Positions 24,388 through 50,168 of a DNA stretch of 64,000 nt are shown in pieces. The notes under the pieces were generated by a model. The model made no database searches, was not told the origin of the DNA, and saw only the letters and a program-made list of their open reading frames with translations. The position numbers and the translations under genes are program-made. Numbering within the stretch: the stretch's first letter is position 1; each line of letters opens with the position of its first letter. The DNA is from an uncultured bacterium (GTDB taxonomy: Bacteria; Fermentibacterota; Fermentibacteria; Fermentibacterales; JCC-6): NCBI GenBank assembly GCA_964423505.1, contig CAYREX010000002.1:24188-88187 (forward strand), in the 5' to 3' direction.

Positions 24388-24640
24388 CTCTACGCCGTCT
24401 TCTCTCCGTGCAATGGCACCGCCTTGACGGTGGTGCATCCTAGATAGCAGTTTCTTAAGCCGCGAGGCCGGTGGTCTCCCCGCCGGCGCAGCGAAGCTGG
24501 AAGTTAGCCATGAAGCTCCTTTCCGTCAAGTACTTGAAGCTCGCCCGCAGCCAGGAGAGGTTTTCAACAATGGTCGCGTCCCCCAGGGGTCTTGCCGGTA
24601 ACAAGTCATTGCAATACAGCCTCTTAGGGCTTTCAGTACG

Positions 24641-24659
24641 TGTGGATAACCGTGTGGAG
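24641..24659. promoter_or_regulatory. DnaA box(es) in the rpmH-dnaA intergenic region
   Basis: Perfect TGTGGATAA (complement of TTATCCACA) at 24641-24649, followed by a 1-mismatch copy TGTGGAGAA at 24653-24661. Confidence 0.5.
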
Positions 24660-24718
24660 AAGAAACACACCTCCCTACGGGACTTAGGTTTATACGCACG
24701 GACGGCAGCGGTGCCCGA

Positions 24719-26050: not shown

Positions 26051-26264
26051 GCTCTTTTCCACAGGCCCCCGTTGATAACCGGCCCTCTCCGGGGGGGTGT
26101 GGAAAACCCTCTTCCCACTATCCGGCTATCCACATGTTCTCGACGTTCGTGGTTTACGCTGCAAAGGGCCTGCGTATGGCATCTCGACATTTCCACGAGT
26201 ATAATTACAACAGTAAGGATGTTCTCTCTCTGAGTGTCTATCCTGCAGGGTGGAGGAATTCGAT
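26051..26264. promoter_or_regulatory. oriC candidate (DnaA-box cluster plus AT-rich DUE-like tract) between dnaA and dnaN
   Basis: TTTTCCACA (26055-63), TGTGGAAAA (26097-105), CTATCCACA (~26122-30), TTTCCACG (~26200). AT-rich GAGTATAATTACAACAGTAAGGATGTT immediately upstream of the dnaN RBS. Confidence 0.5.
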
Positions 26265-32158
<5,894 letters not shown>

Positions 32159-32253: not shown

Positions 32254-35200
32254 ATGCGCCTTCCCTCCCGGTCCGGCGACTCCATGACCGCGGACCCCGG
32301 CACGAGGGCCAGGGTGGAGGCCATCCCCCTCTTCGGAGTGGAATGGACCGCCGCCGGCAGGGCCCTCTCCGTCCTCATCTCCTCCCTGCGGGAGGATGAC
32401 GCCGAGAGGCTGTTCGAGAACATCTCCCACATGAGCGAGCCCCCGCCCATCAGCGAGGAGATGGCGGTCAACTGGTTCCTGGCGATACGGGACCTCCCCT
32501 CCTGCGCCATAGTCACGGCCATACAGGAGTTCCTGCACCTGGGCTGGACGTGGAACCAGATAGGTCCCTCGACCGGCATTTCGTTCGAGGAGCTGCTGGC
32601 CTTCCTCTACCGGGCCTTCGAGACCCTCTCGGAGAACCCGGCGGACATGGAGCTGGCCCGGGAGCTGATAAGGTGCGGCTTCACGTGGCCGGAGAGGTTC
32701 GCCTACATCCTGGACAGGATAAGGACCGGGGGAGCCCCGGTGATAAGGGCCATCGAGAGGGCACGTGAGCTCATGCCGGAGGCCTCCCCTGGCTCGATCC
32801 CGGTTCTGGTCGATTTCGCAGTGGGTATCGGCTGGTACCTGCTGGAGGAGGAGGACCTGCCGATATGGAGGCTGGTCGGCCGGAACGGCGAGCTCCTCTA
32901 CAAGCGCCTGCGGGGGCTGTCGCTCCCCCGCGAGACCCTGAGGCTGCTGGCAGGCTTCCTCGGAAGGATGGAGGAGAGCGGCCAGATGGAGAGGCTGCTG
33001 GAGTTCGCCCTCCCCAGGACGATGCTGTCGATAGTGGGAGACATGCCGGGCAACGTCATGGAGGATGCTCTCGTCAGGCTGTCCAGGGGGACCGTCGCAA
33101 TGCTCAAGCGCAAGGCGGAGAGCGAGATATGCCTGAGCATGCTCTCCTTCCGGGGCGAGCTGGACGAGCCGCTCGAGACCGGTAGGGCGCTGGCGGACGT
33201 GCTGCTGTTCGCCGGCCCCGGAGAGGAGATGGCCGACAACCTCTACGAGCTCCTCGAGATAACCGGGCACGATATGGACTCCCGGGTTGTCAGAGGGCTC
33301 GCCTCGGTGCTGGAGGAGCGAAGGGGCAGGGAGGAGTACGCCGGCCTCGGCCACGAGATACTGATGGACTTCATGAGGACGAGCTGGGAGCTCCTGGCCG
33401 GTGGCGAGGGCTACTCGCGCAAGAAGGTCCATTCCATCGGCAGGCTGATGGACGCAGTCTTCGGCTCCACCGACCCGGCCGCCTCCGTGAGGGAGCTGAA
33501 GGCCCGGGTGAGAGAGTCCGCGCACCCTCCGGAGACGCTCCTGTTCTCCTGCACAATGCTGCTCAGGGGCACGGAGAGGGAGCGGAGTACCGAGGCTCTC
33601 GAGCAGTGCGGCGCATTCGCCAACATCATCACCCTGCTGGACGCGGACTACAGGAGGAGGCTGCTGGAGGGCGACCTGCCCGCCTGGCTGGCTCCGGTCA
33701 GAGACGCCGGGCGCGAGGCGACCGAGGACATCTCCAGGTCACTTGAGCGCATATCGGAGAGGGAGCTCAGGGGCCGCTTCCTCGACAGGCTGGTCACACC
33801 CCTTCTCGTGGATTGCGACCCGACGGACCCGCTGTTCAGCGAGCTGCTCTCCTCCGGCGTGGCTACCTACAACCGCGATCTGGGGATAGAGCAGCTCAGG
33901 GAGGCGGAGACCGAGCTGCTGGGCAAGCTCTTCAGGGCGGAGGACAGGAGCAGGGCGGTCCAGGACACCATGCGGACCATCCTCAACATACCCGGGATAG
34001 AGGACCACAGGGCATCGGAGCTCATCCAGGGCACCAGGGAGCTCTGCGAGGAGCTCTCCCGGCAGGCCGTCTGGCTCGAGGAGAAGGGCAACAGGATGTT
34101 CCGCGGCTTCCTCTCCCGTGGGCTCCAGGACTTCTTCCGCGCCCTCATCGAGAACCCGGGAATGGCCGACAGGCTCACCGGCGGACTGACCGGCGAGCTG
34201 CTCGGGAAGGTAATCCAGGACGGCGAGCGGGAGAGGCAGGTCGCCAGGTGGCAGATGGCCACTCTGGTCGAGCTCTTCGGGAGGATAGTCCCGCTCTCCG
34301 CGGAGATAATGGCCGGCAGGCCGGACCTCTTCGAGGAGTACCTGCGCGAGATGGCCGGGCTCAGCGTGAGGTCGATGCACGGCGAGCCGGCCGGCCACTC
34401 ATTCCTCGGCTGGACGGTCCCGGTTCTCGAGAGACAGCTGGTTGAGGAGTTCATACGCAGGCTCGATGACGAATCCCCGCTGGACGGCATACCGGAGGGG
34501 ATAGTCCCGCAGGCCCTCTTCGACGGCTGGAGCGGCAGCCGGAACAGCGCCTTCGTGATACTCAGGGCCTGCGCATCCAGGCTCAAGCCATTCCTGGCCA
34601 GCAGGACCAGGAGGAGGATACTCGCCCGCGAGGGCAGGCGGCTCGTAGAGGGGCTCCTGGGGAGCGCCCGGGCCGACTTCCTCGAGCCGGAAGCCGAACC
34701 GGAGCTGGCGGGAACGGTATCCGAGCTGGCTGACTACGCCGCGGACACCGACCTGATAGAGGTCGTCCGCTGCATGGAGAGCGGGTTCCCGGACCCGCCT
34801 CCCCCGTGGGAGACCGCGGTCAGGGGTTTCTTCCAGCGCTTCTCCCCCCCCGAGGGCGAGAATCCCTGCCGCCACTGGAGGGAGAGGGCGCTGACCCAGC
34901 TGGACAACATCATGGTGGACGTTCTCCTCCTCTGCAGCGACATGCAGAGCCTCAAGATGATGGACTCGCTGCTGGACGAGTTCGTAGAGGTGGTCGGCTA
35001 CCTGTCGGCAAGCGACGGAGTCGACCTGCCGGTCAGCCTGGACAACCTCTCCAGGTCGCTTTCCGCCGGCCTCTCGCGCCGGGGATCGAGAGGTGTCAGG
35101 GCCGCCGGGAAGAGCCTGGAGAAGACCCTCTACACCTCTCTCTGGAGGCGGAACGCCACCCAGCTCATCAGCGCGGCGGTAGGCGGGCGGGTGCCGACCA

Positions 35201-35805
35201 GACAGCTGGTCTCGGCGCTGTTCGACAGGCTGGCTGAGGAGGACTCCGCCAGGGACAGGCTGCTTTTCACAAGGCGCTACGGAAGCGTTTTCGCAGCGGT
35301 CGAGAGCGGAGTTCTCAGCCGGAAGACCACGGAGATCAAGGCCTTCCGCTCGGTGCTCGAGCACGTCTGGGTCTTCAACGCCGCCTCGGATGCCTCCGGC
35401 TCGATGGTGGAGAACGCCCGCGAGGCAGTGGAGACCTACGTGCAGTACTTCCGTGAGGTAGGTGCGCGAACCGGTGCGGTGAGCGCTCCGGAGGCGGGGG
35501 CGATAAGCCTGGGCATGAAGCGCAGGTACAGGGACAACGCCAACACGGTGGCCACCCTGCTCAAGTGGACCCAAGACCCGGAGAGAGAGAGCCTGCTCGC
35601 CCTCGTCGAGGCGCACCAGCCCCTTCTCGAGGCGGTCAGCCGGGACGCCGAGCTGACCAGGCTGCTCGACGAGCTCTGGACCGACCCCAAGACGAAGAGG
35701 AGCATCAAGTCGATGGCCGACAGGCCCGCGGAGCTCAGGAAGAGGCTCATGAGGGCCGCGGGACGCTGGACGGAGGATGCCGACTCGGGCCTCCACTATG
35801 TCTGA
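32254..35805 (+). CDS. large (1183 aa) all-alpha hypothetical protein, no recognisable domains
   Basis: ATG 32254 after a GAGAAGGGA RBS. Leu/Glu/Arg-rich, no TM helices. Its stop overlaps the downstream asparaginase start (ATGTCTGA). Confidence 0.55.
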   Translation: MRLPSRSGDSMTADPGTRARVEAIPLFGVEWTAAGRALSVLISSLREDDAERLFENISHMSEPPPISEEMAVNWFLAIRDLPSCAIVTAIQEFLHLGWTWNQIGPSTGISFEELLAFLYRAFETLSENPADMELARELIRCGFTWPERFAYILDRIRTGGAPVIRAIERARELMPEASPGSIPVLVDFAVGIGWYLLEEEDLPIWRLVGRNGELLYKRLRGLSLPRETLRLLAGFLGRMEESGQMERLLEFALPRTMLSIVGDMPGNVMEDALVRLSRGTVAMLKRKAESEICLSMLSFRGELDEPLETGRALADVLLFAGPGEEMADNLYELLEITGHDMDSRVVRGLASVLEERRGREEYAGLGHEILMDFMRTSWELLAGGEGYSRKKVHSIGRLMDAVFGSTDPAASVRELKARVRESAHPPETLLFSCTMLLRGTERERSTEALEQCGAFANIITLLDADYRRRLLEGDLPAWLAPVRDAGREATEDISRSLERISERELRGRFLDRLVTPLLVDCDPTDPLFSELLSSGVATYNRDLGIEQLREAETELLGKLFRAEDRSRAVQDTMRTILNIPGIEDHRASELIQGTRELCEELSRQAVWLEEKGNRMFRGFLSRGLQDFFRALIENPGMADRLTGGLTGELLGKVIQDGERERQVARWQMATLVELFGRIVPLSAEIMAGRPDLFEEYLREMAGLSVRSMHGEPAGHSFLGWTVPVLERQLVEEFIRRLDDESPLDGIPEGIVPQALFDGWSGSRNSAFVILRACASRLKPFLASRTRRRILAREGRRLVEGLLGSARADFLEPEAEPELAGTVSELADYAADTDLIEVVRCMESGFPDPPPPWETAVRGFFQRFSPPEGENPCRHWRERALTQLDNIMVDVLLLCSDMQSLKMMDSLLDEFVEVVGYLSASDGVDLPVSLDNLSRSLSAGLSRRGSRGVRAAGKSLEKTLYTSLWRRNATQLISAAVGGRVPTRQLVSALFDRLAEEDSARDRLLFTRRYGSVFAAVESGVLSRKTTEIKAFRSVLEHVWVFNAASDASGSMVENAREAVETYVQYFREVGARTGAVSAPEAGAISLGMKRRYRDNANTVATLLKWTQDPERESLLALVEAHQPLLEAVSRDAELTRLLDELWTDPKTKRSIKSMADRPAELRKRLMRAAGRWTEDADSGLHYV

Positions 35806-36790
35806 CGGCTACAGACGAGTGGCCCTGGTATCGACCGGCGGCACCATCGAGATGATCAGGGGCAGCAGGGGCCTCTCCATGACCGACAGGTTCAACCCGC
35901 TACCCATAGACGGCGAGGTCGTGCCGGACGGCGTCCGGCTCTGCCATCACAAGTTCGCGAGCCTTCCGAGCCCGCACATAACGCCCGTCATGATGGGCGG
36001 GCTCTGCCGCATGCTCCGCGGGCTGACCGAGTGCGGCGACTTCGAGGGAATAGTGGTGACCCACGGCACGGACACACTGGAGGAGAGCGCGTTCCTGGCA
36101 GACTGCTCTCTCCCGGACGACGGTCCGCCGGTAGTCTTCACCGCCGCAATGCGAAGCCCCTCCGAGATGGGGGTGGACGGGCCGAGGAACCTCCGGGGCG
36201 CCATCCTGGTGGCGACGGATGCTGAAGTTCATAACTTGGGAGTTACGGTAGTGCTGAGCGACGAGATCCATGCGGCCGGCCGGGTCACCAAGACCTACAC
36301 GAGCAACGTCAGCAGCTTCAGCTCTCCGGGATACGGGCCGCTCGGCTTCGTCGACCAGGACAGGGTGCTGGTACACAGGAGACCAGCCTGGAGGCTCAGG
36401 CTCCCGCCCATGGAGCTGCGGATGGAGGCTCCCGTATCCCTTGTCAGGGTGGCCTCCGGCTTCGGCGACAGGCCGATACTGGACTGCGTGGAGAGGGGCG
36501 ATGCCGGCATCGTCGTCGAGGCCATGGGCAGGGGGAACGTCCCGCCGCCGGTGGCCGCCGCCGTCGAGACCGCGGTCAGGGAGGGGCTCACGGTATGCGT
36601 CTCGAGCAGGTGTTACATGGGGAGGGTGCTTGGCGTGTACGGCTACGAGGGGGGCGGCGCCGACCTCGAGGAGAGGGGCGCGATTATGGCAGGTGACGTC
36701 CAGGGACACAAGCTGAGGCTCTTCCTCATGGCCGCCCTCGACGCCGGGATGGACCGGGAGCGCATAGCCGAGCTGCTGGCGAAGGCCTAG
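35798..36790 (+). CDS. ansA: L-asparaginase (type I / GatD-like amidohydrolase family)
   Basis: VALVSTGGTIEM (threonine nucleophile motif), VVTHGTDTLEESAF. Confidence 0.8.
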   Translation: MSDGYRRVALVSTGGTIEMIRGSRGLSMTDRFNPLPIDGEVVPDGVRLCHHKFASLPSPHITPVMMGGLCRMLRGLTECGDFEGIVVTHGTDTLEESAFLADCSLPDDGPPVVFTAAMRSPSEMGVDGPRNLRGAILVATDAEVHNLGVTVVLSDEIHAAGRVTKTYTSNVSSFSSPGYGPLGFVDQDRVLVHRRPAWRLRLPPMELRMEAPVSLVRVASGFGDRPILDCVERGDAGIVVEAMGRGNVPPPVAAAVETAVREGLTVCVSSRCYMGRVLGVYGYEGGGADLEERGAIMAGDVQGHKLRLFLMAALDAGMDRERIAELLAKA

Positions 36791-36798
36791 GATGTTCG

Positions 36799-36828
36799 TT
36801 GACACCATGAACGCGGGAGACGTAGTGT
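36799..36828 (+). promoter_or_regulatory. sigma70-like promoter candidate for the bactofilin module
   Basis: TTGACA (36799-804), 18-nt spacer, TAGTGT (36823-28). GAAGGAG RBS and ATG 36862 follow. Confidence 0.3.
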
Positions 36829-36861
36829 ACGGCTTGCGGTGCTCCGAAGGAGCCGCCTGAC

Positions 36862-37224
36862 ATGCTCGGCAGCGGCTTCACCGCGTACTTCGTGCCGCAC
36901 GACGGCAGGAGACGTTACAGGCTGGAGTTCAGCGGGCTCAAGCTGCTGCTCCTGAGGGTTGCGCTTGCGCTCATACTCCTGGTGGTGGCCGCGGCGGTGA
37001 CCATGCTGGCATTCGGCCTGACGAGCGCAGAACGCCTGTCCGAGCTGAGGGGCTGCGTAGCCAGGCTCGAGGACTCCCTTGCGTCCTCCAGCCTCATAGA
37101 GGCCAGGCTCGAAAGGATCGAGAGCGAGCTCGAGGCCATAGGCGATACGCGGGAGACGATAGTCAACATGACCACCCTGCTCCCGGAGGCCGTCGAAGGG
37201 GACTCGCTGGTCCAGAACCGATAG
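36862..37224 (+). CDS. small membrane-anchored coiled-coil protein, hypothetical
   Basis: One TM segment (LLLLRVALALILLVVAAAVTMLAF) then a heptad-like region. GAAGGAG RBS. Confidence 0.45.
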   Translation: MLGSGFTAYFVPHDGRRRYRLEFSGLKLLLLRVALALILLVVAAAVTMLAFGLTSAERLSELRGCVARLEDSLASSSLIEARLERIESELEAIGDTRETIVNMTTLLPEAVEGDSLVQNR

Positions 37225-37237
37225 GAGGACTCTACCC

Positions 37238-37594
37238 ATGCCGAAGAGAGAGGGCTCCCAGGCGATGGACTCTATGCTCGGCTCGGGGAGCTTCTGCGAC
37301 GGTTCCCTCAAGGTCGAGGGAGGGCTGCGGATAGACGGCACCGTCGACGGAGAGGTGGAGGTAACCGGTACCCTGACAGTCGGGCGCGAGGGGGTCATCA
37401 CCGGAAACGTCAAGGTCGATACCGCCATCGTCGCCGGCCGCATCCGGGGTACCGTGCGGGCCACCAGCCAGCTCGAGCTCCAGGGCGGCTCCAGGCTGGA
37501 GGGGGACGTGTTCACGAGGTCCCTCGTCATCGAGGAGGGCGTCTTCTTCGAGGGCAACTGCAGCATGTCCGAGAGGGAGGCCGGCGAGGCCTGA
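37238..37594 (+). CDS. bactofilin (DUF583 polymer-forming cytoskeletal protein)
   Basis: Beta-helical repeats (...GSLKVEGGLRIDGTVDGEVEVTGTLTVGREGVITGNVKVDTAIVAGRIRGTV...). Confidence 0.75.
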   Translation: MPKREGSQAMDSMLGSGSFCDGSLKVEGGLRIDGTVDGEVEVTGTLTVGREGVITGNVKVDTAIVAGRIRGTVRATSQLELQGGSRLEGDVFTRSLVIEEGVFFEGNCSMSEREAGEA

Positions 37595-37595
37595 T

Positions 37596-37702
37596 TGTGG
37601 AAAATGTGGAAAAACACCGAGCATCGTGGATAACTCCATAAATTACTGTGCCGCAGGAACTTGACTGTATTACTTAAAGTAGTTTCGCAGGTTGTATCCA
37701 CA
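37596..37702. promoter_or_regulatory. AT-rich island with four DnaA boxes upstream of the V-type ATPase operon
   Basis: TGTGGAAAA x2 in direct tandem (37596-37613). CGTGGATAA (37625-33). GTATCCACA (37694-702). AT-rich spacer containing TTGACT (37661-66). Confidence 0.55.
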
Positions 37703-37791
37703 ACTTGCATTGGCAAGGAGTCATAGCCGGGAACCCGCCCGACAGGATCGGTTACCCGGCGGGCTCCGGGACCTTCGAAAGGCTGGTGTCC

Positions 37792-38130
37792 ATGTCCAGG
37801 CTCGAAGAGCTCCGAGCGGCCGAGGAGCAGGCAGCCGAGGTCCTCGAGAGGGCCAGGAGGGAGGCTCAGCGGATACGTCTCTCCATCCCCGACGCGCTGG
37901 AGGAGATGGACTCGAGGAAGGACGGCAAGCTCGCCGAGGTGGCCGACAGGGCCGACCGGGCCGTCGAGGAGGAGATGGGGCGGCTCGCCGACAGGCTCGA
38001 GGGCCGTACCCGGGAGCGGCTCGAGGAGCTGGAGGGCCATCGTGGCGACGTCGAGTCCAGGGCCGCGGAGCTCCTGGAGGCCCACCTGCTCCGAGACGGG
38101 GCCGGGGATACCGACGGAGAAGGGGACTGA
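37792..38130 (+). CDS. V/A-type ATPase small coiled-coil stator subunit (G/H-like)
   Basis: MSRLEELRAAEEQAAEVLERARREAQRIR...; charged coiled coil. Stop overlaps the atpI ATG (TGATG). Start uncertain; the track ORF begins at TTG 37705. Confidence 0.5.
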   Translation: MSRLEELRAAEEQAAEVLERARREAQRIRLSIPDALEEMDSRKDGKLAEVADRADRAVEEEMGRLADRLEGRTRERLEELEGHRGDVESRAAELLEAHLLRDGAGDTDGEGD

Positions 38131-40157
38131 TGGCGCTGGACAGCGTCCGGAAGGTCCGCATCCTCTGCCATTCCGGCAGGCGTCACGAGGTCCTGTCCGA
38201 GATCGAGTCCATGGGCAGCGTCCACGTCCTGGACCTGGGGGAGCCCGGGAGAGAAGGGCCGGAGGGTGTCCCCGGATTCCTCAGACCGGCCGAGATAGAC
38301 ACGGCAGAGCTCTCGGAGAGGCTCTCCAGCCTGGAGAGGGCGATATCCTTCCTGCAGGACCGTACAGGCGTCGAGCCGCCCTCCGTGACCGAGCTGGAGG
38401 AATCGGAGCTGGTGGCCGAGGTGGAGAACCGGGAGCTCATCGCCGACGCCAGGCGGGCATGGGTGCTGGCCGTCTCAATGACCAAGCTGGAGGGCGCCAG
38501 GAGGGAGCTGGAGCAGGAGCGCGACTTCCTCGCGGACTGGACCGGCATCCCGCTCCCGCTGGAGAGGCTGGGCGAGGGAGACTCCGTCACGCTGGCGGCC
38601 GGGACGCTCGGCGGTGACGCCGCGGAGGCAGCAGGGCTCATCGAGGCCGAGACCCCCCTCGTGCACATAGAGCGGCTGGGCTCTGACGGACCTCTGGAGC
38701 GGGTGGTGGTCTCGGTGCACCGCGAGGTCGCCCGGGACGTGCTCGGAAGGCTCGGAGAGGTCGGCTTCGTAAGGCAGGACTTCGGGGCCAGGGAGGGGCT
38801 GGTGTCCGACCTCCACTCGGAGGTCGAGAGAGAGATAGCCCTCGTGGACAGGCGGATGTCGGACCTGCATGCCAGGACCCTGCAGCTGGCGGAGGAGCTG
38901 GACCGGCTCGTTGTCCTCCGGGACGCCGCCGGTCTCCTCCTCGAGCGCATGGGCGCCGCCGGCATGTCCCTGGAGAGCAGGCACGTGAGCATGCTGGACG
39001 CATGGGTCCGGGAGCGGGACATCCCCCGGCTCCGGGAGCGACTCGAGGCGCTGGGGGAAGTGGCTGTCACCGAGGCGCCGCTCTCCGAGGGAGAGATCCC
39101 TCCATCGCCGCTCACCGAGCCCCCTGCGGCACAGCCCTACACCATGCTCACGGACATGTACGGCCAGCCCACCAGGAAGGACCCCGACCCAACTCCCATA
39201 ATGGCCCCCTTCTTCGCAGTCTTCTTCGGCATATGCATAGGAGACGCGGGGTACGGGCTGGCTCTCGCAGCCGGCTCCGCCCTGGGCTGGGCCATCGTCA
39301 GACGGAGGCACGGCAACCCGACCCTCTTCCGGCTCCTCTTCCAGGGAGGGCTGGCCAGCATTCTCGTAGGCGTCTTCCTGGGCGGGTGGTTCGGGATAGA
39401 TTTCCAGAGCCTTCCCGGCTTCCTTCAGGCCCCGGCGATGCTGCTGAACCGCCTCGTCCCGGGCTACGTGCCGGGAGGCGAGTCGGAGGGATTCTCGGTC
39501 TCGAAGCAGTTCCTCTACCTCACCCTGGCGCTCGGGCTAGTCCAGCTCACAACCGGGATAGTAGTCAACCTCTTCAAGCGCCTCAGGGCGGGAGAGGGCC
39601 TCCCCGCGGTCCTGGACCAGTCCGGCTGGCTGCTGGCCACCGCCGGCCTCTTCCCCTGGCTCTTCAACAGGTACCTGATGCCGGGGCAGCTATTCCCGGT
39701 GGACGGGCCGGTGGACCAGGCCCTGCTATACGTCCTGGCCCTGGGCGCCCTCCTGATATTCGTCATGGGGGGGAGGGAGGCCAAGGGGATAGGGCGCTTC
39801 GGCCTGGGGGCGTACGCGGTCTACGGCATAGTCAACCTCCTGGGGGACATGCTCTCCTACTCGAGGCTCTTCGCCCTGGCGCTCTCCAGCGCCATCATCG
39901 CGCAGGTGATAAACGAGATGGCGGGGATGCTGATGAGCGAGCTGGGCGTGCCGGTGGTCGGCGTTGTCCTCGCGGTGCTGGTGGTCGCCGGCGGCCACCT
40001 CTTCAACCTGCTGATGGCCTGCCTGAGCGGCTTCATCCATACCGCCAGGCTCCAGTTCGTCGAGTTCTTCGGGAAGTTCTACGACGGTACCGGCGTGCCC
40101 TTCAGGCCGCTCCGCTACCGTCCCAGGTACGTGCACATAAGGGGAAGAGGGGAATAG
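38130..40157 (+). CDS. atpI: V/A-type ATPase subunit I (a-subunit, membrane stator)
   Basis: 675 aa. N-terminal hydrophilic half. C-terminal multi-TM half with the conserved Arg-containing helix (...LSYSRLFALALSSAIIAQVINEMAG...). Confidence 0.85.
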   Translation: MALDSVRKVRILCHSGRRHEVLSEIESMGSVHVLDLGEPGREGPEGVPGFLRPAEIDTAELSERLSSLERAISFLQDRTGVEPPSVTELEESELVAEVENRELIADARRAWVLAVSMTKLEGARRELEQERDFLADWTGIPLPLERLGEGDSVTLAAGTLGGDAAEAAGLIEAETPLVHIERLGSDGPLERVVVSVHREVARDVLGRLGEVGFVRQDFGAREGLVSDLHSEVEREIALVDRRMSDLHARTLQLAEELDRLVVLRDAAGLLLERMGAAGMSLESRHVSMLDAWVRERDIPRLRERLEALGEVAVTEAPLSEGEIPPSPLTEPPAAQPYTMLTDMYGQPTRKDPDPTPIMAPFFAVFFGICIGDAGYGLALAAGSALGWAIVRRRHGNPTLFRLLFQGGLASILVGVFLGGWFGIDFQSLPGFLQAPAMLLNRLVPGYVPGGESEGFSVSKQFLYLTLALGLVQLTTGIVVNLFKRLRAGEGLPAVLDQSGWLLATAGLFPWLFNRYLMPGQLFPVDGPVDQALLYVLALGALLIFVMGGREAKGIGRFGLGAYAVYGIVNLLGDMLSYSRLFALALSSAIIAQVINEMAGMLMSELGVPVVGVVLAVLVVAGGHLFNLLMACLSGFIHTARLQFVEFFGKFYDGTGVPFRPLRYRPRYVHIRGRGE

Positions 40158-40210
40158 GGTCCCGGGGGAGCCTTTCCTGATTCTGTAGTGATCGAGAAGG
40201 GAGACAGTTC

Positions 40211-40654
40211 GTGGAACAGCTAGTCGCCTACCTTGGAATAGCCTTTGCCACCGCACTGGCTGGCATCGGCTCCGCAGTCGGCGTCGGTATAGCCGCTCAG
40301 GCGAGCACCGGCGTCATGAGCGTGGACCCGGGCAAGTTCGGTAAGCTGCTGCTGCTCTCGGCGCTCCCCGGGACGCAGGGTATCTACGGCTTCGTCATAG
40401 CCTTCCTGCTACTGGGCAAGGTCTCCGCCGAGATGGGCATGGCCACCGCCTGGTCGATTTTCGCGGCCGGCCTGCCCATTGCCCTCTCCGGGCTTCTCTC
40501 CGGCATCCATCAGGGCAAGGTCTGCGCAGGCGGCGCCATGATGACGGCCAAGCAGCCCGGCGACTCGGCCAAGTCGCTCATCCTGGCGGTCTTCGTGGAG
40601 TTCTACGCCATCCTCGGCTTCCTGGTCTCCTTCCTCATGCTGCAGGGAATCTGA
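40211..40654 (+). CDS. atpK: V/A-type ATPase proteolipid subunit K (c-ring)
   Basis: GTG start after a GAAGGGAGA RBS. Two hairpins with Gly-rich helices (LAGIGSAVGVGIAA...). Confidence 0.85.
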   Translation: MEQLVAYLGIAFATALAGIGSAVGVGIAAQASTGVMSVDPGKFGKLLLLSALPGTQGIYGFVIAFLLLGKVSAEMGMATAWSIFAAGLPIALSGLLSGIHQGKVCAGGAMMTAKQPGDSAKSLILAVFVEFYAILGFLVSFLMLQGI

Positions 40655-40666
40655 GGCGGCGCACGG

Positions 40667-41254
40667 ATGTCTGTAGAGGCGATACGGGAGAGGATACTGT
40701 CTGAGGCCGAGCGGGAGGCCGGGCAGATAGTAGCCGAGGCCGAAGAGGAGCGCCGTGCCCGCGAGGAGGAGCACGCCGCGGAGCTGAGGGAGCAGTACTC
40801 GAGGGAGCTCGAGCGACTCCAGTCCAAGGCCATGGAGAAGAGACGAATGGGCTCCACCCATGTGCACCGGGAGGCGGAGAGAAAGCTCCAGAGCGCCAGG
40901 CGGAGGATGATAGACGACGCTATCGACGGCGCGGTCGATAGGCTGGCCTCGCTGCCGGACGACCGCTACCTGCCGATAATCGGGGCGATACTCGACCGAT
41001 GCGACCTCGAGGGTGACGTGGAGGTAGTCATCTCCCCGGATGACGAGGGCAGGGTAACGCAGCGGTTCCTGGAGGGGCACTCGGACGGCGACCGGAAGCT
41101 GGTCCTCTCCGAGGAGCGGCACGACCTGGGCGGCGGAGTCATCATGAGAGCGGGCAGCATAAGCCAGAACGGGACCTTCGCCATGCTGGCGACCCTCGCC
41201 CATGACGACCTCGTAATGGCGCTGGCCGAGATGGTCCCAGTGGAGATAGGCTGA
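40667..41254 (+). CDS. atpE: V/A-type ATPase subunit E
   Basis: Charged coiled-coil N-terminus, globular C-terminus; position in operon. Confidence 0.75.
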   Translation: MSVEAIRERILSEAEREAGQIVAEAEEERRAREEEHAAELREQYSRELERLQSKAMEKRRMGSTHVHREAERKLQSARRRMIDDAIDGAVDRLASLPDDRYLPIIGAILDRCDLEGDVEVVISPDDEGRVTQRFLEGHSDGDRKLVLSEERHDLGGGVIMRAGSISQNGTFAMLATLAHDDLVMALAEMVPVEIG

Positions 41255-41258
41255 GCGG

Positions 41259-42233
41259 ATGGGCGGCAAGGGCTTCGTCTACGCGAACGGGAGGGTCTCC
41301 GGCGAGGAGACCACCCTGCTGGACCGCAGGATGTGGCAGATGCTGGTCTCCGCCTCCGACGAGGAGGAGGCCATGAGGCTGCTCGGGGACACATGGTACG
41401 GGCAGTTCATGCAGAGCAGGACCCTGGACGCCTGCCTCGAGTGCGCCCTGGCCGCCACGGAGGATGAGCTGATATCCCTCTCGGAGGACGAGCGCCTGGT
41501 CAGGGGCATACTCCGCCGCAGGGACGTCAGGAACGCCAGGTACGTATGGAAGGCGGCCCTCCTCGGCGTTCCGGAGGAGGAGGTGACCACCGAGAGGGAT
41601 GGTCTGCTGGAGGTGGACACTCTCAGGCGGGCCGTCCGTGACGACGAGGCCCGCTCCTCGCTGCCCGACCTCTTCTCGGAGGCCCTCGATGACCTCGAGG
41701 CGATGGACGGCCCGGGGCCAGTGGCCATCGACAGGCGCATGGACCGGCTGGCCGCCGATGTGGAGCTGGCCGAGCTGCCGGCGCTGGGTCCCGAGTTCGC
41801 CCGTTTCGTCAGGGACAGGATGGAGCTGAAGAACTTCCTCACCGCGGGGAGATGCAGGGTCGCCGGCCTGCAGCGGCCCGAGGTGGAGGCGCTCCTCCTC
41901 CCCGGGGGCCACCATACCCCCGAGGAGGTGGGCGAGGCCTACCAGAGGGGCAGTCTCGGGGAGACCCTTGCCGAGACGCCGGGGCTCGAGGAGCTGGCCT
42001 CCGAGCTGGAGGAGTCAATCGCGCACGGCTCCTTCTACGGCTTCGAGAGGGAGAGCGACAGGAAGCAGCTCGAGCGTCTGGAGCAGGGCACCTACCCGGT
42101 GTTCGGCCCCATCCCGCTGGCCTCCTTCGTTGCAAGGAGGGAGATGGAGATCGTCCACCTGCGGCTGCTGCTGGCGGCCAAGTCGGCGGATATAGGGATG
42201 GGCAGGCTGAGGGACCGCCTTCCCAGGGGATAG
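41259..42233 (+). CDS. atpC: V/A-type ATPase subunit C (d-subunit)
   Basis: 324 aa; operon position and family resemblance. Confidence 0.7.
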   Translation: MGGKGFVYANGRVSGEETTLLDRRMWQMLVSASDEEEAMRLLGDTWYGQFMQSRTLDACLECALAATEDELISLSEDERLVRGILRRRDVRNARYVWKAALLGVPEEEVTTERDGLLEVDTLRRAVRDDEARSSLPDLFSEALDDLEAMDGPGPVAIDRRMDRLAADVELAELPALGPEFARFVRDRMELKNFLTAGRCRVAGLQRPEVEALLLPGGHHTPEEVGEAYQRGSLGETLAETPGLEELASELEESIAHGSFYGFERESDRKQLERLEQGTYPVFGPIPLASFVARREMEIVHLRLLLAAKSADIGMGRLRDRLPRG

Positions 42234-42240
42234 GAGGAGC

Positions 42241-42573
42241 ATGGACTCGGGGACCGTGGCTTTCATGGGCGATGCCGACACAGTCCTCGGCTTCCGTGCC
42301 CTGGGCGTCGAGACGTTCGTGCCGGAGAGCCCCGAGATGGCCCGCGAGATATTCGCCGGCCTGGTGAGGCGCGAGGTCGCTGTGGTGATGATAACGAGCG
42401 AGCTGCAAGAGCACCTCCGGGAGGAGGTCGAGGAGGTCCTGCACAGGCCGCTGCCCGCGGTGATCGTCCTTCCGGGGATCAAGGGCGCGGACAGGCATGG
42501 CAGGGACACCATTAGGGAGCTGGTCATCAGGGCCGTCGGGGTCGACCTGATGTCCGAGAGCGACGGAGCCTGA
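42241..42573 (+). CDS. atpF: V/A-type ATPase subunit F
   Basis: 110 aa; ...VAFMGDADTVLGFRALGVETF...VVMITSEL... Confidence 0.75.
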   Translation: MDSGTVAFMGDADTVLGFRALGVETFVPESPEMAREIFAGLVRREVAVVMITSELQEHLREEVEEVLHRPLPAVIVLPGIKGADRHGRDTIRELVIRAVGVDLMSESDGA

Positions 42574-42607
42574 CGGTTAAGACCATGGACACCCTCGGAG
42601 GCAACGG

Positions 42608-44377
42608 ATGATCAAGGGAACGATCGACAAGATAGCTGGTCCGCTCGTGGTCGCGGACGGGATGAGGGAGGCCAGGATGTACGACCTGGTCTACGTCTCC
42701 GACTACGGGCTCATCGGGGAGATAATCGAGCTCAAGGGAGACAAGGCCTCCATCCAGGTCTACGAGGAGACCGGCGGCCTGAAGCCGGGCGACCCGGTCA
42801 CCGCCACCGGCGAGCCGCTGTCGGTCGAGCTGGGCCCGGGGCTGCTCACCGCGATATACGACGGCATCCAGCGCCCGCTCGACGAGGTCCGGGAGGCCGC
42901 GGGCGACTGGATCACGAGGGGGATTACCATCAGGGGGCTGGACCACGAGAAGGTCTGGGATTACGCCCCCGTAGCCTCCGAGGGCGACGAGGTCTCCGGT
43001 GGCGACGTCCTGGGGGAGGTCCCGGAGACCGAGCTAATCACCCACAGGGTGATGGTCCCCCCGGGCATGGCGGGCCGACTCACCTGGGCCATAGAGCCGG
43101 GCAGCTACGACATCGACACCGTGGTGGCGAAGATGGACTCGGGAGACGGCGAGGTTGAGCTGAGGATGTTCCACACCTGGCCGGTCAGGGCTCCCAGGCC
43201 GGTCGCGGTGAAAATGGCCCCCACGGAGCCGCTGGTCACTGGTCAGAGGGTGATAGACGCATTCTTCCCGCTGGGCAAGGGTGGGACCGCCTGCGTCCCC
43301 GGACCGTTCGGGAGCGGCAAGACGGTCATACAGCACCAGCTCGCCAAGTGGGCCGACGCGGAGATAGTCGTCTACGTCGGCTGCGGGGAGAGGGGCAACG
43401 AGATGACCGACGTCCTCCAGGAGTTCCCCGAGCTGGAGGACCCGAAGAGCGGCAAGCCGCTCATTCTCAGGACCGTCCTGGTCGCCAACACCAGCAACAT
43501 GCCCGTCGCCGCCCGCGAGGCCAGCGTCTACACCGGGATAACCATCGCCGAGTACTTCAGGGACATGGGCTACTCCATAGCCCTGATGGCCGACTCCACC
43601 AGCAGGTGGGCCGAGGCGATGAGGGAGATGTCCGGGCGCCTGGAGGAGATGCCCGGCGAGGAGGGCTACCCGGCCTACCTGGGGACCAGGATAGCCGAGT
43701 TCTACGAGAGGGCCGGCAAGATAAGGTGCCTGGGAGGAGAGGAGAGGTTCGGGGCCCTGACGGTTGTCGGGGCGGTCAGCCCCGCCGGAGGCGACCTCTC
43801 CGACCCGGTGGTGCAGGCCACCCTGCGTGTGGTCAAGGTCTTCTGGAGCCTTCAGGCCAAGCTCGCCTACATGAGGCACTTCCCCGCCATCGGGTGGCTG
43901 GAGAGCTACTCCCTCTACACCGATAACCTCAGGGAGTACTACGACGAGGAGCTCGGCACCGAGTGGGTGACGATGATGAGGGAGGCGATAGCCCTCCTCC
44001 AGAAGGAGGCCAACCTCCAGGAGATAGCGAGGCTGGTCGGCGCCGAGTCGCTCTCGCCGGAGGACCAGCTGGTGCTCTACACCTCAAGGTCGCTCAGGGA
44101 GGACTTCCTGCACCAGAACGCCTTCCACGAGGTCGACACGTACGCCTCCATAGAGAAGCAGAAGAAGATGATGGAGGTCATCATGGCCACCCACGGGGCC
44201 ATGGTTGACGCCCTCAGGAAGGGTGCACCGACCAGGGAGCTCTTCGACCTTCCCGCAAGGGAGCGCATCGCCAGGATGAAGTTCATCCCCGAGTCGGAGA
44301 TGGAACGGATTGACGAGGTCAGGGAGACCATGGGCAGCCAGATAGAAGAGCTGGTCGAGCGCCAGCAGAGCGCCTAG
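42608..44377 (+). CDS. atpA: V/A-type ATPase catalytic subunit A
   Basis: Walker [10 protein letters not shown]; the non-homologous insert region typical of A subunits. Confidence 0.95.
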
Positions 44378-44391
44378 GGGGTGACGGACGC

Positions 44392-45845
<1,454 letters not shown>

Positions 45846-45846
<1 letters not shown>

Positions 45847-46472
45847 TGGCCATCCAGGTCCGGGCAACCCGGATGGAGCTGCTGCAGTACCGCAAGAAGG
45901 TGAAGCTCGCCAGCAGGGGGCACAAGCTGCTCAAGGACAAGCTGGACGAGCTGATGCGGCAGTTCAAGATACTGCTCGCCGAGTACGAGGGGGCAAGGAG
46001 AGAGCTGGAGAACGAGCTCTCCCAGGCCTACGGCGAGTTCCTCTTCGCCAGGGCCGCCATGACCCCGCAGGGGCTGGACGATGCGCTCAGGTACCCGGGG
46101 GCCGAGGCCAGGGTGCAGACCACCACCCGCCGGGTCATGAACCTGACGCTGCCGGAGTTCGAGGTCACGCTGGAGGGAGACGTCAGGAACTACGGGATGT
46201 TCGACACACCGGCGGAGCTGGACGAGGCGCTGGAGGTATATCGGGAGGTCCTGCCCCACATCATAAGGCTGGCGCAGCAGGAGAAGGCCATAAGCCTGCT
46301 GGCCAAGGAGATAGATACTACAAGGAGGAGGGTGAACGCCCTGGAGTACAAGCTCATCCCCGAGCTCGAGGAGGCCATCGCCAGCATCCGTTTGAAGCTG
46401 GACGAGATGGACAGGGGCAACCTCACCCGCCTGATGAAGGTCAAGGAGATGGTCGACGCCAAACGGACCTAA
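45846..46472 (+). CDS. atpD: V/A-type ATPase subunit D (central stalk)
   Basis: MAIQVRATRMELLQYRKKVKLASRGHKLLKDKLDELMRQF... Confidence 0.85.
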
Positions 46473-47606
46473 GCCGGGCGTTCCTTATTTGATTTGGTAA
46501 GCTATCTTTGTCCCCTACAAGCATGATAAATGAATTTGTTGCATCCAGTGGGTTTCCTGGATACACTCGAAGTATGCCGTATGTGATGAGGTTGGATCAT
46601 CCGGGTAGCCTACACCACGTCATGTCGCATTGCGTGGAGGGATGCTGGGCCTTCTCCGGAGACAGGGCTCGGGAGGATTTCGTCCGGCGACTCACGGGAC
46701 TAGTCACTGAATCTCAACTCGCCTTGCATGCCTGGTGCCTGATGGGAAACCACCTGCATCTCCTCGTGGAGGCTGGCGAGAATGGCATTACCCGACCCAT
46801 GCATCGGTTGCTCTGCGGATTCGCCAAGGCCTACAACAAGAGAGAGGACAGACGCGGCCATGTCTTCGATGCACGCTTCAAATCCATTCTTGTGGAGGGA
46901 TGCCTCTATTATCTCGGTCTCATAGCCTATATCCACCTGAATCCCATCAGAGCCGGGGTCCTGGCAGGCTTGGATGAGCTTGTGGAATACCCCTGGACAG
47001 GACACTCCGAGATTATGGGCGAAGTCGAACGCGGCATTCTGACCTTCGGGAGATTGACAGAGGAGTTGAACACGGACATCGGGACTCTCCGGGCCAGCTA
47101 TAAGTGCTTGCTCGAAAATAGGCTACACAATGATGCCCCGGAGTTCGAGAGCGGTACGTATTGCATTGGTCCTGCAGGTCTGATGGAGTACGCAACCGGG
47201 GTCATGAGCTCCAGGGCTTCCCCGATACTGGGAAGCAGGAGCTTCGCGCTGAAAATGTACTCCCGCTACAGAGGAACCGCCAGGAGAACGCTGAGGTGCA
47301 GGGAGTCACAGCACCGGACCCTGGAGGATTTGCTGTCCTCGTTCTCCACAGAATCCGGGATACCCGTCAGTACTCTGAGAAGTGGGGCGCGGGATCGCAG
47401 GCTTGTGCGAGTCAGGCGGAAGCTGACCACCAGAATGTCAGAGCTTGGCATGTCGCAATCCGATATAGCATCCTTCCTCGGGATATCAGCATCCACGGTT
47501 CACAGAATCCTCAGAGGTCGCGACTCATGCTGCAGGCCGTCTGAGTTCGAATAAAGGCCCAAGCGTTCCCAAATAGCCTTACCAAATCAAGTAAGGAAAG
47601 CCCGGC
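46473..47606 (+). mobile_element. IS-like unit: HUH Y1 (IS200/RAYT-family) transposase gene bracketed by ~34-bp imperfect inverted repeats
   Basis: Left GCCGGGCGTTCCTTATTTGATTTGGTAAGCTAT (46473-46505). Right ATAGCCTTACCAAATCAAGTAAGGAAAGCCCGGC (47573-47606) is its reverse complement with ~30/34 identity. The unit exactly fills the gap between the atpD stop and the elbB-like stop. Confidence 0.6.
46523..47554 (+). CDS. tnpA: IS200-like / REP-associated tyrosine (Y1 HUH) transposase with C-terminal DnaA-domain-IV-like HTH
   Basis: RLDHPGSLHHVMSHCVEG, HUH motif HLHLLVE, catalytic Tyr region YIHLNPIRAG. C-terminal SQSDIASFLGISASTVHRIL. Start uncertain (ATG 46523 or ATG 46574). Confidence 0.7.
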   Translation: MINEFVASSGFPGYTRSMPYVMRLDHPGSLHHVMSHCVEGCWAFSGDRAREDFVRRLTGLVTESQLALHAWCLMGNHLHLLVEAGENGITRPMHRLLCGFAKAYNKREDRRGHVFDARFKSILVEGCLYYLGLIAYIHLNPIRAGVLAGLDELVEYPWTGHSEIMGEVERGILTFGRLTEELNTDIGTLRASYKCLLENRLHNDAPEFESGTYCIGPAGLMEYATGVMSSRASPILGSRSFALKMYSRYRGTARRTLRCRESQHRTLEDLLSSFSTESGIPVSTLRSGARDRRLVRVRRKLTTRMSELGMSQSDIASFLGISASTVHRILRGRDSCCRPSEFE

Positions 47607-47607
47607 G

Positions 47608-49989: not shown

Positions 49990-50085
49990 AGAGCACCGTC
50001 GGGCAAACCGGGGGAGACCCCGGGACGCAAAGCCACGGGTCCCAGCCACCGCATGGGGACGGTGGAAGGACGGCCGGGTTGCCGT
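49990..50085 (+). promoter_or_regulatory. c-di-GMP-I (GEMM) riboswitch, copy 1
   Basis: GGGCAAACC-GGGG-GAGA-CCCC-GGGACGCAAAGCCACGGGUCC...GGACGGCCGGGUUGCCG. This matches the GEMM core (GCAAACC, GNRA loop, GGGACGCAAAGCC, 3' AGCNGGGUUNCCG element). Confidence 0.7.
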
Positions 50086-50168
50086 TTGCAGAGGCAAACC
50101 GGGGGAAACCCCGGGACGCAAAGCCACGGGTCCCAGTCCGGGAGACCGGAAAGGACAGCCGGGCCGCC
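50086..50168 (+). promoter_or_regulatory. c-di-GMP-I (GEMM) riboswitch, copy 2 (tandem)
   Basis: GAGGCAAACC-GGGG-GAAA-CCCC-GGGACGCAAAGCCACGGGUCC...GGACAGCCGGGCCGCC. 43-nt core identical to copy 1 apart from the tetraloop. An 8-bp hairpin CCGCCCCG-GGAA-CGGGGCGG follows, immediately 5' of the GAGGAGG RBS. Confidence 0.65.

Follow-up and report, generated by a model that had tools for sequence, protein, structure and literature searches.

A conserved array of predicted DnaA boxes at the entrance of the V/A-type ATPase operon of Fermentibacteria

Introduction

DnaA-binding sites outside the replication origin, such as datA, DARS and the DnaA-box clusters, are understood in few model bacteria, and their architecture is mostly loosely conserved. 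DnaA also acts at promoters, examples being the autoregulation of dnaA, the nrdAB, guaB and mioC promoters of E. coli and the sda and ywlC promoters of B. subtilis. We know of no rotary ATPase operon that is a DnaA target.

The chromosome of B. subtilis carries six DnaA-box clusters (DBCs) in intergenic DNA, most of them close to oriC; initiation is restrained by the six together, and some also regulate the genes beside them (PMC3245932). Okumura et al. predicted that such oriC-proximal clusters are common in bacteria without SeqA and Hda. The datA locus of E. coli, a site of DnaA-ATP hydrolysis (DDAH) that is intergenic and fairly near oriC, contains few high-affinity boxes with critical spacing and an IHF site between boxes; its essential boxes (7, 2 and 3), which flank the IHF site, are all oriented alike, and transcription through datA inhibits its function in E. 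coli (PMC5742627). In the E. coli DARS elements (DnaA-reactivating sequences), the core is made up of three boxes at close spacing, of which box I is inverted and contacts the adjacent box II head-to-head, and DARS2 uses accessory IHF and Fis sites (PMC5742627). The basal unwinding system (BUS) of bacterial origins, finally, is defined by one or two DnaA boxes followed, within 0-16 bp, by at least three DnaA-trios (NAN repeats, consensus 3'-GAT-5'), the side being set by the orientation of the box (PMC8287927). Here, we describe a DnaA-box array in a 64-kb stretch of DNA from a Fermentibacteria/Aegiribacteria MAG, hereafter referred to as the window, and compare it to these systems.

Results and discussion

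Four predicted DnaA boxes precede the ATPase operon

In the window, a bactofilin gene (37238..37594, + strand; Pfam PF04519, E = 2.4e-27) is followed by an intergenic spacer of 199 bp (37595..37793, + strand, 51% GC) and by a complete V/A-type ATPase operon (37794..46472, + strand) with the gene order G/H-like, I, K, E, C, F, A, B and D, as recognised by Pfam matches. The product of the first operon gene (112 aa) has no Pfam match and, from its position and coiled-coil composition only, is probably a G/H-like stalk protein. The 3' part of the spacer (37703-37793) forms a leader that is GC-rich, varies between lineages and ends in the ribosome-binding site GAAAGG and the ATG at 37794. The TTG start chosen by the gene caller for this gene (37705, giving 141 aa) was dropped; only the ATG with GAAAGG is conserved.

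Upstream of the operon, the spacer contains four predicted DnaA boxes, starting at 37596, 37605, 37625 and 37694 and each matching TTATCCACA at 8/9 positions. Boxes 1 (37596..37604) and 2 (37605..37613) lie on the - strand, where both read TTTTCCACA, and abut as repeats of TGTGGAAAA on the + strand, the first of which begins 2 nt past the bactofilin stop codon. Box 3 (37625..37633, - strand) reads TTATCCACG, and box 4 (37694..37702, + strand; GTATCCACA) is inverted with respect to boxes 1-3. The initial annotation had claimed four DnaA boxes in an AT-rich island, and all four were recovered at its positions: the 112-bp stretch of the array has 40.5% GC, compared to 67% for the window, and ranks second in AT-richness among the 100-bp segments of the 64 kb. 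The gene context was also as claimed, with dnaA 11.5 kb upstream and the V/A-ATPase operon directly downstream.

Allowing at most one mismatch, the window contains 14 box matches versus 2.6 expected, and the four exact copies of TGTGGAAAA all lie within the array or the dnaA-dnaN spacer. Shuffles of the 112-bp stretch, which keep its own AT-rich composition, contained 0.03 boxes on average and never three or more (0/100,000). The excess of boxes in the window is limited to three clusters, one at the array and one on either side of dnaA: the density per 100 bp is 2.0 in the array spacer, 1.5 in the dnaA-dnaN spacer and 0.6 in the rpmH-dnaA spacer. The density in other intergenic DNA, suggested earlier as a check, turned out to be about zero (0-0.14 boxes per 100 bp), in favour of a genuine cluster. 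Because the excess is confined to these three clusters and two of them flank dnaA, the motif can be regarded as the DnaA box of this lineage. Domain IV of the DnaA encoded in the window is normal (Pfam Bac_DnaA_C, E = 2.4e-24). The four-box array is real and non-random.

The array is conserved across Fermentibacteria with rigid spacing

We compared 42 distinct related array sequences from genomes with a GC content of 37-68%. The array was found in every recovered Fermentibacteria locus that includes the spacer, and always between the bactofilin and the ATPase genes; conservation at the orthologous site, also proposed as a check, is thus phylum-wide and includes the spacing. Box 1 was present (at most 2 mismatches) in 21/42 distinct relatives, and its distance to box 2 is 9 bp in all 21 sequences. 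Boxes 2 and 3 were present in 40/42 and 41/42 relatives, respectively, with start-to-start distances of 20 bp from box 2 to box 3 (40/40) and of 69 bp (31 sequences) or 68 bp (10 sequences) from box 3 to box 4. These spacings are fixed despite the varying intervening sequence and the wide range of genome GC.

In nearly all relatives, the boxes agree with the universal 9-bp consensus at 8 or 9 positions. The phylum consensus reads TGTkGAAAAC for box 2 and TGTGGAaAAC for box 3, both on the + strand, and (A/G)TATCCACAAC for box 4, in whose core TCCACAA the T and CACAA are invariant and the remaining C is kept in 38/41 sequences. The information per column amounts to 1.2-2.0 bits in the boxes versus about 0-0.4 bits in the variable stretches. 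Among the three clusters, the mean box count is highest at the array (2.09 versus 1.41 and 0.82, with a background of 0.16 per kb). Judging from this pattern of conservation, the array is under selection.

The bactofilin gene is syntenic in every related locus extending that far, and the V/A-ATPase operon in all related loci, within the phylum-wide block rnpA|dnaA-dnaN-dciA-gyrBA-...-bactofilin|V-ATPase. In the window, dnaA is located at 24719-26050 and all genes from 24.7 to 46.5 kb lie on the + strand; the array is likewise downstream of dnaA in 21/21 other loci spanning both sites. The same origin-proximal block holds the site in every genome, so an operon-linked and an origin-region-linked site look alike in synteny. 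Outside this phylum, boxes were not enriched in V-ATPase operons (59 loci; 0.41 versus 0.32 per kb). A general connection between DnaA and the V-ATPase, absent in these loci save one TA06 locus, was rejected, and for lack of that enrichment the link between DnaA and the ATPase would be lineage-specific.

Two companion motifs accompany the boxes

Boxes 3 and 4 are separated by an AT-rich spacer with a fixed length of 59-60 bp. Position frequencies revealed in it a semi-conserved, two-fold symmetric motif, TAA-N4-TTG-N5-CAA-N4-TTA (37639..37663, not assigned to a strand), which in the window reads TAA-ATTA-CTG-TGCCG-CAG-GAAC-TTG. Each half of this motif resembles the core of the IHF consensus. 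With at most one mismatch, the IHF consensus WATCAANNNNTTR occurs in 16/42 spacers versus 4.9 expected, and these matches cluster at one position; exact matches occur in 2/42 spacers, and the window's own copy matches poorly. We consider the symmetric motif a candidate binding site of a partner protein that is dimeric or bends DNA. A hairpin in RNA or DNA was rejected: TTG and CAA pair in 64.4% of cases versus 61.7% in column shuffles (92/500), and RNAalifold predicted 0 pairs on 40 sequences.

Flush with box 4 lies a near-invariant block of 22 bp, ACTTAAAGTnGTTTCnnAGGTn (37672..37693, + strand), that is unlike a DnaA box. Its columns A-16, T-10 and T-9 are invariant in 41/41 sequences, and T-19, G-15 and T-2 are kept in 40/41. 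Each of 48 Fermentibacteria loci contains a single copy of the composite pattern of block and box 4, which is missing from the remainder of the 1.92 Mb of fetched DNA, and the window contains no other convincing copy of the block motif TAAAGNNGTTT. The block is a candidate for a non-canonical core promoter or for the site of a second protein. Since block plus box 4 is single-copy and site-specific and the dyad is enriched for IHF-like matches, the array appears to be more than a cluster of boxes.

Transcription into the ATPase operon would cross the array

A promoter-prediction tool detected no sigma-70 promoter in the array spacer. A scan for sigma-70-type promoters placed no conserved promoter there either: in the spacers of the 42 relatives, matches were obtained in about half of the cases and at inconsistent positions. 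The same scan detected a TATAAT-type promoter in 21/21 dnaA-dnaN spacers of relatives, and a promoter in the array spacer should therefore be non-canonical or absent. The 22-bp block adjoining box 4 is promoter-sized and non-canonical. In several sub-lineages, its -10-like candidates (TAAAGT, TAGTTT) have lost the A or T at key positions, and the sigma-54, sigma-28, sigma-32 and Bacteroidetes TAnnTTTG/TTTG patterns, compared by eye, did not fit the conserved block.

We found neither a terminator after bactofilin nor a terminator-like site in the spacer, and a sigma-70-type promoter is located upstream of unk120 in 18/39 loci; transcription that enters the ATPase operon must therefore cross the array. 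Folding of the leader gave no significant structure (z = -1.39), and a second single-strand fold was not significant either (z = -0.67). A search of Rfam yielded nothing at the gathering thresholds and, at E <= 1, only a spurious snoRNA match.

A proposed DnaA-binding control region of the ATPase operon

Based on these sequence comparisons, we propose with moderate confidence that the array is an extra-origin, origin-proximal DnaA-binding control region belonging to the V/A-ATPase operon. Box density and conservation bear out the suggestion of the initial annotation that the site is a DnaA-box cluster outside the origin, comparable to a titration site or a DnaA-regulated promoter. The probable binder is DnaA and not another protein, a partner protein presumably exists, and the array would affect both the transcription of the ATPase genes and the availability of DnaA. 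Control of ATPase expression by the array is an inference, as no canonical promoter was located.

In the proposed mechanism, the three tandem high-affinity boxes 1-3 and the inverted box 4 would be occupied by DnaA, and a second protein, probably DNA-bending or dimeric, would bind the two-fold symmetric site in the spacer between them. The fixed register points to a defined nucleoprotein complex, in which the bent spacer would bring DnaA on boxes 1-3 into contact with DnaA on box 4. This complex would sit astride the only way by which RNA polymerase can reach the ATPase operon, with the polymerase entering either at a non-canonical promoter in the region of the block and box 4 or by read-through from the unk120-bactofilin unit, and ATPase expression would be gated by DnaA occupancy. 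Because the array, 11.5 kb from dnaA, would be copied within seconds of initiation, the local DnaA sinks would be doubled, by analogy to the oriC-proximal clusters of B. subtilis.

Possible, albeit tentative, is a composite DnaA switch of an undescribed kind, in which DnaA and a partner on the symmetric site and/or the 22-bp block would form a loop of fixed geometry that couples the main ion-translocating ATPase to initiator status, or, in another version, a datA/DARS-like regulator of the nucleotide state that would have evolved independently outside Proteobacteria.

We find it doubtful that the array is purely a control element of DnaA activity of the datA, DARS or DnaA-box-cluster type, which would titrate DnaA or change its nucleotide state soon after initiation and whose position at the ATPase genes would be incidental, as the nearest tolerated gap. 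High-affinity boxes whose register is fixed around a candidate bending-protein site would suit such an element, but the far box of the array is inverted, whereas the essential boxes of datA are co-oriented around the IHF site, and its close boxes are co-oriented, whereas the DARS core has an inverted box I. The specific analogy to datA and DARS drawn by the initial annotation appears to fail on architecture. The distance to dnaA, which means that the site is duplicated straight after initiation, the spacer in which no canonical promoter was found and the prediction of Okumura et al. on bacteria without SeqA and Hda are all in line with a pure activity element; the 22-bp block abutting box 4, which has no counterpart in datA or DARS, and the exposure of the array to transcription, an inhibitor of datA function in E. 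coli, argue against it. Control of DnaA activity and the preferred control region of the ATPase operon are compatible and not mutually exclusive.

It is improbable that the repeats are operators of a different transcription factor, or plain promoter elements, that resemble DnaA boxes by coincidence. Their consensus TGTGGAAAAC is one position off the classical box and further conserved motifs other than DnaA boxes are present in the array, but in the same genomes conserved arrays of these 9-mers, including the variant TTTTCAACA, flank dnaA on either side, a location that is the signature of DnaA boxes and thus argues against another factor. The motif is, moreover, almost absent from the remainder of the window, and the close agreement with the universal consensus extends to nearly all relatives.

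The replication origin probably lies next to dnaA

The initial annotation had alternatively regarded the AT-rich island as the true DUE of a dispersed origin, a claim which was not supported. Of the two clusters flanking dnaA, the one in the dnaA-dnaN spacer (26051..26249, + strand) consists of three strong and at least two weaker DnaA boxes followed by an AT-rich stretch containing TATAAT. The rpmH-dnaA spacer (24389..24718, + strand) contains three boxes (24561, 24641 and 24653), a divergent rpmH promoter and a gene-strand switch; the strand of the genes does not switch at the array.

Regarding the BUS, for which one or two boxes with at most two mismatches suffice, the array has four boxes with at most one mismatch. 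The best run of DnaA-trios in the window, however, is a single trio at each of boxes 1, 2 and 4; box 3 has three trios, but in the gap between boxes 2 and 3 and outside the AT-rich spacer. Runs of at least four trios within 16 bp were found at 1/48 array boxes (17 loci), which is no better than the background of 14/188, versus 9/61 boxes in the dnaA-dnaN spacer, where they lie beside the last box in 7/16 related loci scanned, all correctly oriented.

With R1 of E. coli oriC read as TGTGGATAA, the unwinding element is on its 5' side. By this orientation rule, boxes 1-3 of the array face the GC-rich bactofilin end and box 4 faces the leader, so the boxes point away from the AT-rich spacer. Instead of following the trios as in a BUS, the AT-rich DNA is enclosed by boxes 3 and 4, opposite to the side to which a filament would be directed. 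The GC skew at fourfold sites is nearly the same to the left and to the right of the array, both in 31 loci (-0.126 versus -0.118) and in the window (-0.167 versus -0.168), which is a weak test as codon bias dominates this skew; the skew in 1-kb steps is positive throughout 27 to 47 kb. With an origin at the array, dnaA, dnaN, gyrB and gyrA would run head-on to replication in every genome.

That the array is the replication origin or its unwinding element, with DnaA melting the AT-rich spacer and the dnaA-side clusters being only autoregulatory, is highly improbable in view of the outward-facing boxes, the scarcity of trio runs, the unchanged skew and the strand switch at rpmH|dnaA, even though no other box array of the region is as dense or as well conserved, its geometry is rigid, its DNA ranks second in AT-richness among the 100-bp segments of the window, and origins are not always next to dnaA, as in E. 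coli. From its sequence features, the dnaA-dnaN spacer is a stronger oriC candidate than the array, and oriC is probably adjacent to dnaA.

Comparison with known systems

A whole uncultured phylum keeps a base-pair-exact four-box array, together with two unexplained companion motifs, at the entrance of its V/A-ATPase operon. With its 110 bp, the array is a compact, synthesisable substrate for how DnaA, perhaps with a bending partner, builds a complex outside the origin, and it could be used to test for a link between initiator status and energy conservation in a fermentative lineage. The comparison further provides a working oriC prediction for Fermentibacteria, namely the dnaA-dnaN spacer.

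With a bacterial oriC containing a BUS, the array shares DnaA boxes and an AT-rich stretch in the neighbourhood of dnaA, but it differs by the lack of DnaA-trios, by boxes that face off the AT-rich stretch and by an unchanged strand composition. The position of its boxes at or upstream of a transcription unit is reminiscent of DnaA-regulated promoters, whereas its spacer contains no convincingly predicted promoter. Mixed box orientations and fixed spacing are common to the array and to DARS1 and DARS2; in the array, however, box I is not set opposite to boxes II and III as in the DARS core, the three close boxes (starts at 0, 9 and 29 bp) being co-oriented and the inverted box lying beyond the 59-60-bp spacer. 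Like datA, the array is intergenic and has few boxes at fixed spacing with a candidate bending-protein site between them. Its boxes 1-3 are co-oriented at invariant spacing, but box 4 across the spacer is inverted, unlike the essential boxes of datA, and the IHF-like motif is only partly conserved. The B. subtilis DBCs (yydA-yycS, ywlC-ywlB and sda) and the Streptomyces clusters resemble the array in being intergenic, in having consensus boxes and in lying outside yet near oriC; correspondingly, the array is an intergenic cluster separate from the two dnaA-flanking clusters and 11.5 kb away from dnaA. It differs from the B. subtilis DBCs by having only 3-4 predicted boxes, by its rigid phylum-wide register, by two extra non-DnaA motifs and by its association with one fixed operon.

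A DnaA-box array upstream of the V/A-ATPase operon

The 199-bp intergenic spacer between the bactofilin gene and the V/A-ATPase operon (37595-37793) contains four DnaA-box matches, all exactly where the initial annotation had placed them. Boxes 1 (37596-37604) and 2 (37605-37613), both TTTTCCACA on the minus strand and read on the plus strand as two abutting TGTGGAAAA copies, are followed by box 3 on the minus strand (TTATCCACG, 37625-37633) and box 4 on the plus strand (GTATCCACA, 37694-37702); the array begins 2 nt past the bactofilin stop codon. Allowing one mismatch, the whole window holds 14 matches where 2.6 are expected, and the exact TGTGGAAAA copies (n = 4 in the window) are confined to this array and the dnaA-dnaN spacer. 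The 112-bp box stretch has a GC content of 40.5% compared to 67% for the window and ranks second among the most AT-rich 100-bp segments of the 64 kb. AT-richness does not account for the boxes, since shuffled versions of this same stretch contained 0.03 boxes on average, with three or more in 0/100,000 cases. Compared to 2.0 boxes per 100 bp in the array spacer, 1.5 in the dnaA-dnaN spacer and 0.6 in the rpmH-dnaA spacer, the remaining intergenic stretches of the window hold 0-0.14, so that the array does not reflect a density common to other intergenic DNA, an objection raised in the initial annotation. Domain IV of the DnaA encoded here (residues ~395-420) reads GRDHSTVLNS; the E. coli equivalent is GRDHTTVLHA. 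Two base-contacting residues are among those that differ, which might be linked to the preference of the lineage for TTTTCCACA/TTTTCAACA boxes.

A gene map of the window was built from Pfam scans and ORF statistics. Here, rnpA and rpmH (up to 24388, minus strand) are followed on the plus strand by dnaA (24719-26050), dnaN (26250-27398), a dciA-like gene (27395-27727), gyrB (27508-29646), gyrA (29636-32158), the gene of an 1183-aa protein without Pfam match (32254-35805), asparaginase (35777-36790), the gene of a 120-aa protein of no known identity (unk120; 36862-37224), bactofilin (37238-37594) and the ATPase operon with subunits G-like, I, K, E, C, F, A, B and D (37794-46472). Homologues of subunit I assign the window to a Candidatus Fermentibacteria/Aegiribacteria MAG, the nearest non-self one being 63% identical, and two Logan contigs carry an identical spacer. 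Automatic gene calls on these contigs place the start of the first ATPase gene at TTG 37705, 2 nt past box 4 (ORF 37705-38130, 141 aa), a start that is not conserved in relatives. Because ATG 37794 with its ribosome-binding site GAAAGG is the sole start kept in relatives, the predicted 112-aa form (37794-38130) is more likely. Directly after the operon lies a stretch of low GC content (46473-47607, 55%), possibly a mobile-element insertion, with the 100-bp segment of highest AT content in the window at its start (46485) and a plus-strand ORF of 348 aa (46508-47554) showing a weak match to IS200-like Y1 transposases and a C-terminal HTH. Further downstream, two tandem c-di-GMP-I riboswitch aptamers (49992-50171, plus strand; Rfam RF01051, 64.9 and 59.7 bits) immediately precede ORF 50217-51308.

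Conservation in Fermentibacteria

Scanning genomes with an alignment of subunit I yielded 19 Fermentibacteria loci, and the 1183-aa protein, which is specific to the lineage, gave 36 additional ones in metagenomes. Every locus long enough to show it has the gene order rnpA|dnaA-dnaN-dciA-gyrB-gyrA-1183aa-(asparaginase)-unk120-bactofilin|ATPase. The 1183-aa protein, with 24-46% identity and a strongly conserved C-terminal motif (AGEIS..MRRKYRDNA..VAILLRWT), is found at one and the same position within the origin-proximal block in all loci. All loci containing the spacer carry the array, which bears out the conservation that the initial annotation had asked about, and the spacing is near-invariant. 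Among 42 distinct sequences, whose genomes have a GC content of 37-68%, the distance from box 2 to box 3 is 20 bp in 40/40 and that from box 3 to box 4 either 69 bp (31 sequences) or 68 bp (10 sequences); box 1 is present in half of the sequences, always 9 bp ahead of box 2. Box 4 lies about 40-95 nt ahead of the ATPase start codon, depending on the sub-lineage. In an ungapped, anchored alignment, the box columns carry 1.2-2.0 bits, compared to ~0 bits in the 11 bp that separate box 2 from box 3 and in parts of the spacer. Over 22 loci spanning all three box clusters, the mean number of 8/9 boxes is highest in the array (2.09), followed by the dnaA-dnaN spacer (1.41) and the region upstream of dnaA (0.82), with 0.16 per kb elsewhere.

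The AT-rich spacer holds companion motifs. A two-fold symmetric, semi-conserved motif, TAA-N4-TTG-N5-CAA-N4-TTA (37639-37663), overlaps with both halves the core of the IHF consensus WATCAANNNNTTR, which occurs with at most one mismatch at one fixed position in 16/42 spacers (4.9 expected) and exactly in just 2/42. Flush with box 4 lies a near-invariant 22-bp block, ACTTAAAGTnGTTTCnnAGGTn (37672-37693). Block and box 4 together form a pattern that each of 48 Fermentibacteria loci carries in a single copy; no further copy was found in the 1.92 Mb of DNA fetched, which also covers 61 V-ATPase loci of other phyla.

Transcription across the array

A scan for sigma-70-type promoters revealed no conserved promoter in the array spacer, while, as positive control, it recovered TATAAT-type promoters in 21/21 dnaA-dnaN spacers. 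Upstream of the unk120-bactofilin pair (window 36791-36861 and equivalents), a sigma-70-type promoter, TTGACx-17/18-TAGnnT, was present in 18/39 loci, and no terminator was found in this unit before the array or past the bactofilin gene. The ATPase operon is therefore transcribed either by read-through from the unk120-bactofilin unit or from a non-canonical promoter in the conserved block, and RNA polymerase must cross the array either way.

From the observed boxes, conservation, geometry and companion motifs we infer a model in which DnaA would occupy the three tandem boxes and inverted box 4, a second protein would bend or bridge the fixed-length spacer, and the resulting complex would gate transcription into the ATPase operon. 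Binding of the array by DnaA is highly probable; for gating of the ATPase genes, we consider the chances to be even. The array would also add DnaA-binding capacity beside the origin once copied, because it is replicated immediately after initiation, and it is conceivable, if rather unlikely, that it acts on DnaA itself alone.

Origin and RNA readings

Four tests, on box orientation, DnaA-trios, strand composition and gene orientation, speak against the alternative of the initial annotation that the array is the true unwinding element (DUE) of a dispersed origin. In E. coli oriC, the unwinding element lies 5' of R1 when R1 is read as TGTGGATAA. By this rule, boxes 1-3 face the bactofilin gene, at its GC-rich end, and box 4 faces the leader; all four point away from the AT-rich spacer. 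In the published definition of the basal unwinding system (PMC8287927), three or more NAN trios follow a box at a distance of no more than 16 bp. Runs of at least four trios were seen beside 1/48 boxes in the array, 9/61 in the dnaA-dnaN spacer and 14/188 in the background. Fourfold-site GC skew of plus-strand genes does not differ between the left and right sides of the array (-0.126 vs -0.118 in 31 loci; -0.167 vs -0.168 within the window), although this skew is dominated by codon bias and thus a weak test; 1-kb GC skew is positive all through 27-47 kb of the window. The sole switch in gene orientation is rpmH|dnaA, and with an origin at 37.6 kb, replication would meet dnaA, dnaN, gyrB and gyrA head-on in every genome. 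The array is very probably not oriC.

The better candidate, and likely the Fermentibacteria oriC, is the dnaA-dnaN spacer (26051-26249) with about five conserved boxes. In the window and the comparison loci L083-L116, it shows a phylum-conserved architecture of TGTkGAAAAC, a tandem TTTTCMACAT-TTTTTCMACA, another TTTCCACA box and then an invariant GTATAATTAC; DnaA-trio-like runs, gathered at the last box before dnaN (e.g. CAG-TAC-TAG-TAA), precede a T-rich tract. The rpmH-dnaA spacer (24389-24718) has three boxes, a conserved TTTTCMACA and, ~85 bp on, two converging boxes 12 bp apart (TGTGGATAAccgTGTGGAGAA), besides a conserved divergent rpmH promoter (TTGACG-17-TAACTT, minus strand). Its boxes are absent from a Sabulitectum-like sub-lineage, and it may be a second origin part or an autoregulatory region.

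Regarding a structured RNA at the site, Rfam returned no family, no consensus structure was found, an apparent mini-hairpin in the spacer lacked covariation and single-strand folding energies were not significant.

Comparison with known systems

V-ATPase loci of other phyla showed no DnaA-box enrichment. In one locus of candidate division TA06 (LJUI01000067.1; positions 9380-9480 of the fetched locus L072), a small cluster of DnaA-box-like 9-mers (TTATCCACC, TTCTCCACA, TTATCCACC, ATTTCCACG) lies ~150-250 bp upstream of the V-ATPase operon, next to the gene of a Rex-family repressor and a TTGTGAAGAAGTTCACG that resembles a Rex box; the 10 kb of upstream DNA fetched showed no dnaA, and this cluster may be due to chance.

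The Fermentibacteria array is real, is under strong selection and is very probably not the origin. The DARS core does not match it. With datA it would share the design principle of boxes with an internal bending site, here a candidate one, but the essential boxes of datA are all co-oriented (PMC5742627), whereas box 4 is inverted. The closest class are the B. subtilis DnaA-box clusters, which are oriC-proximal and intergenic, in some cases regulate neighbouring genes, jointly restrain initiation and are expected to be widespread among bacteria without SeqA and Hda (PMC3245932). At the sequence level the array has the features of this class; unlike the B. subtilis clusters, it is small, rigid and phylum-wide, with companion motifs. 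It is best classed as a new form of DnaA-box cluster or DnaA-operated control region outside the origin.
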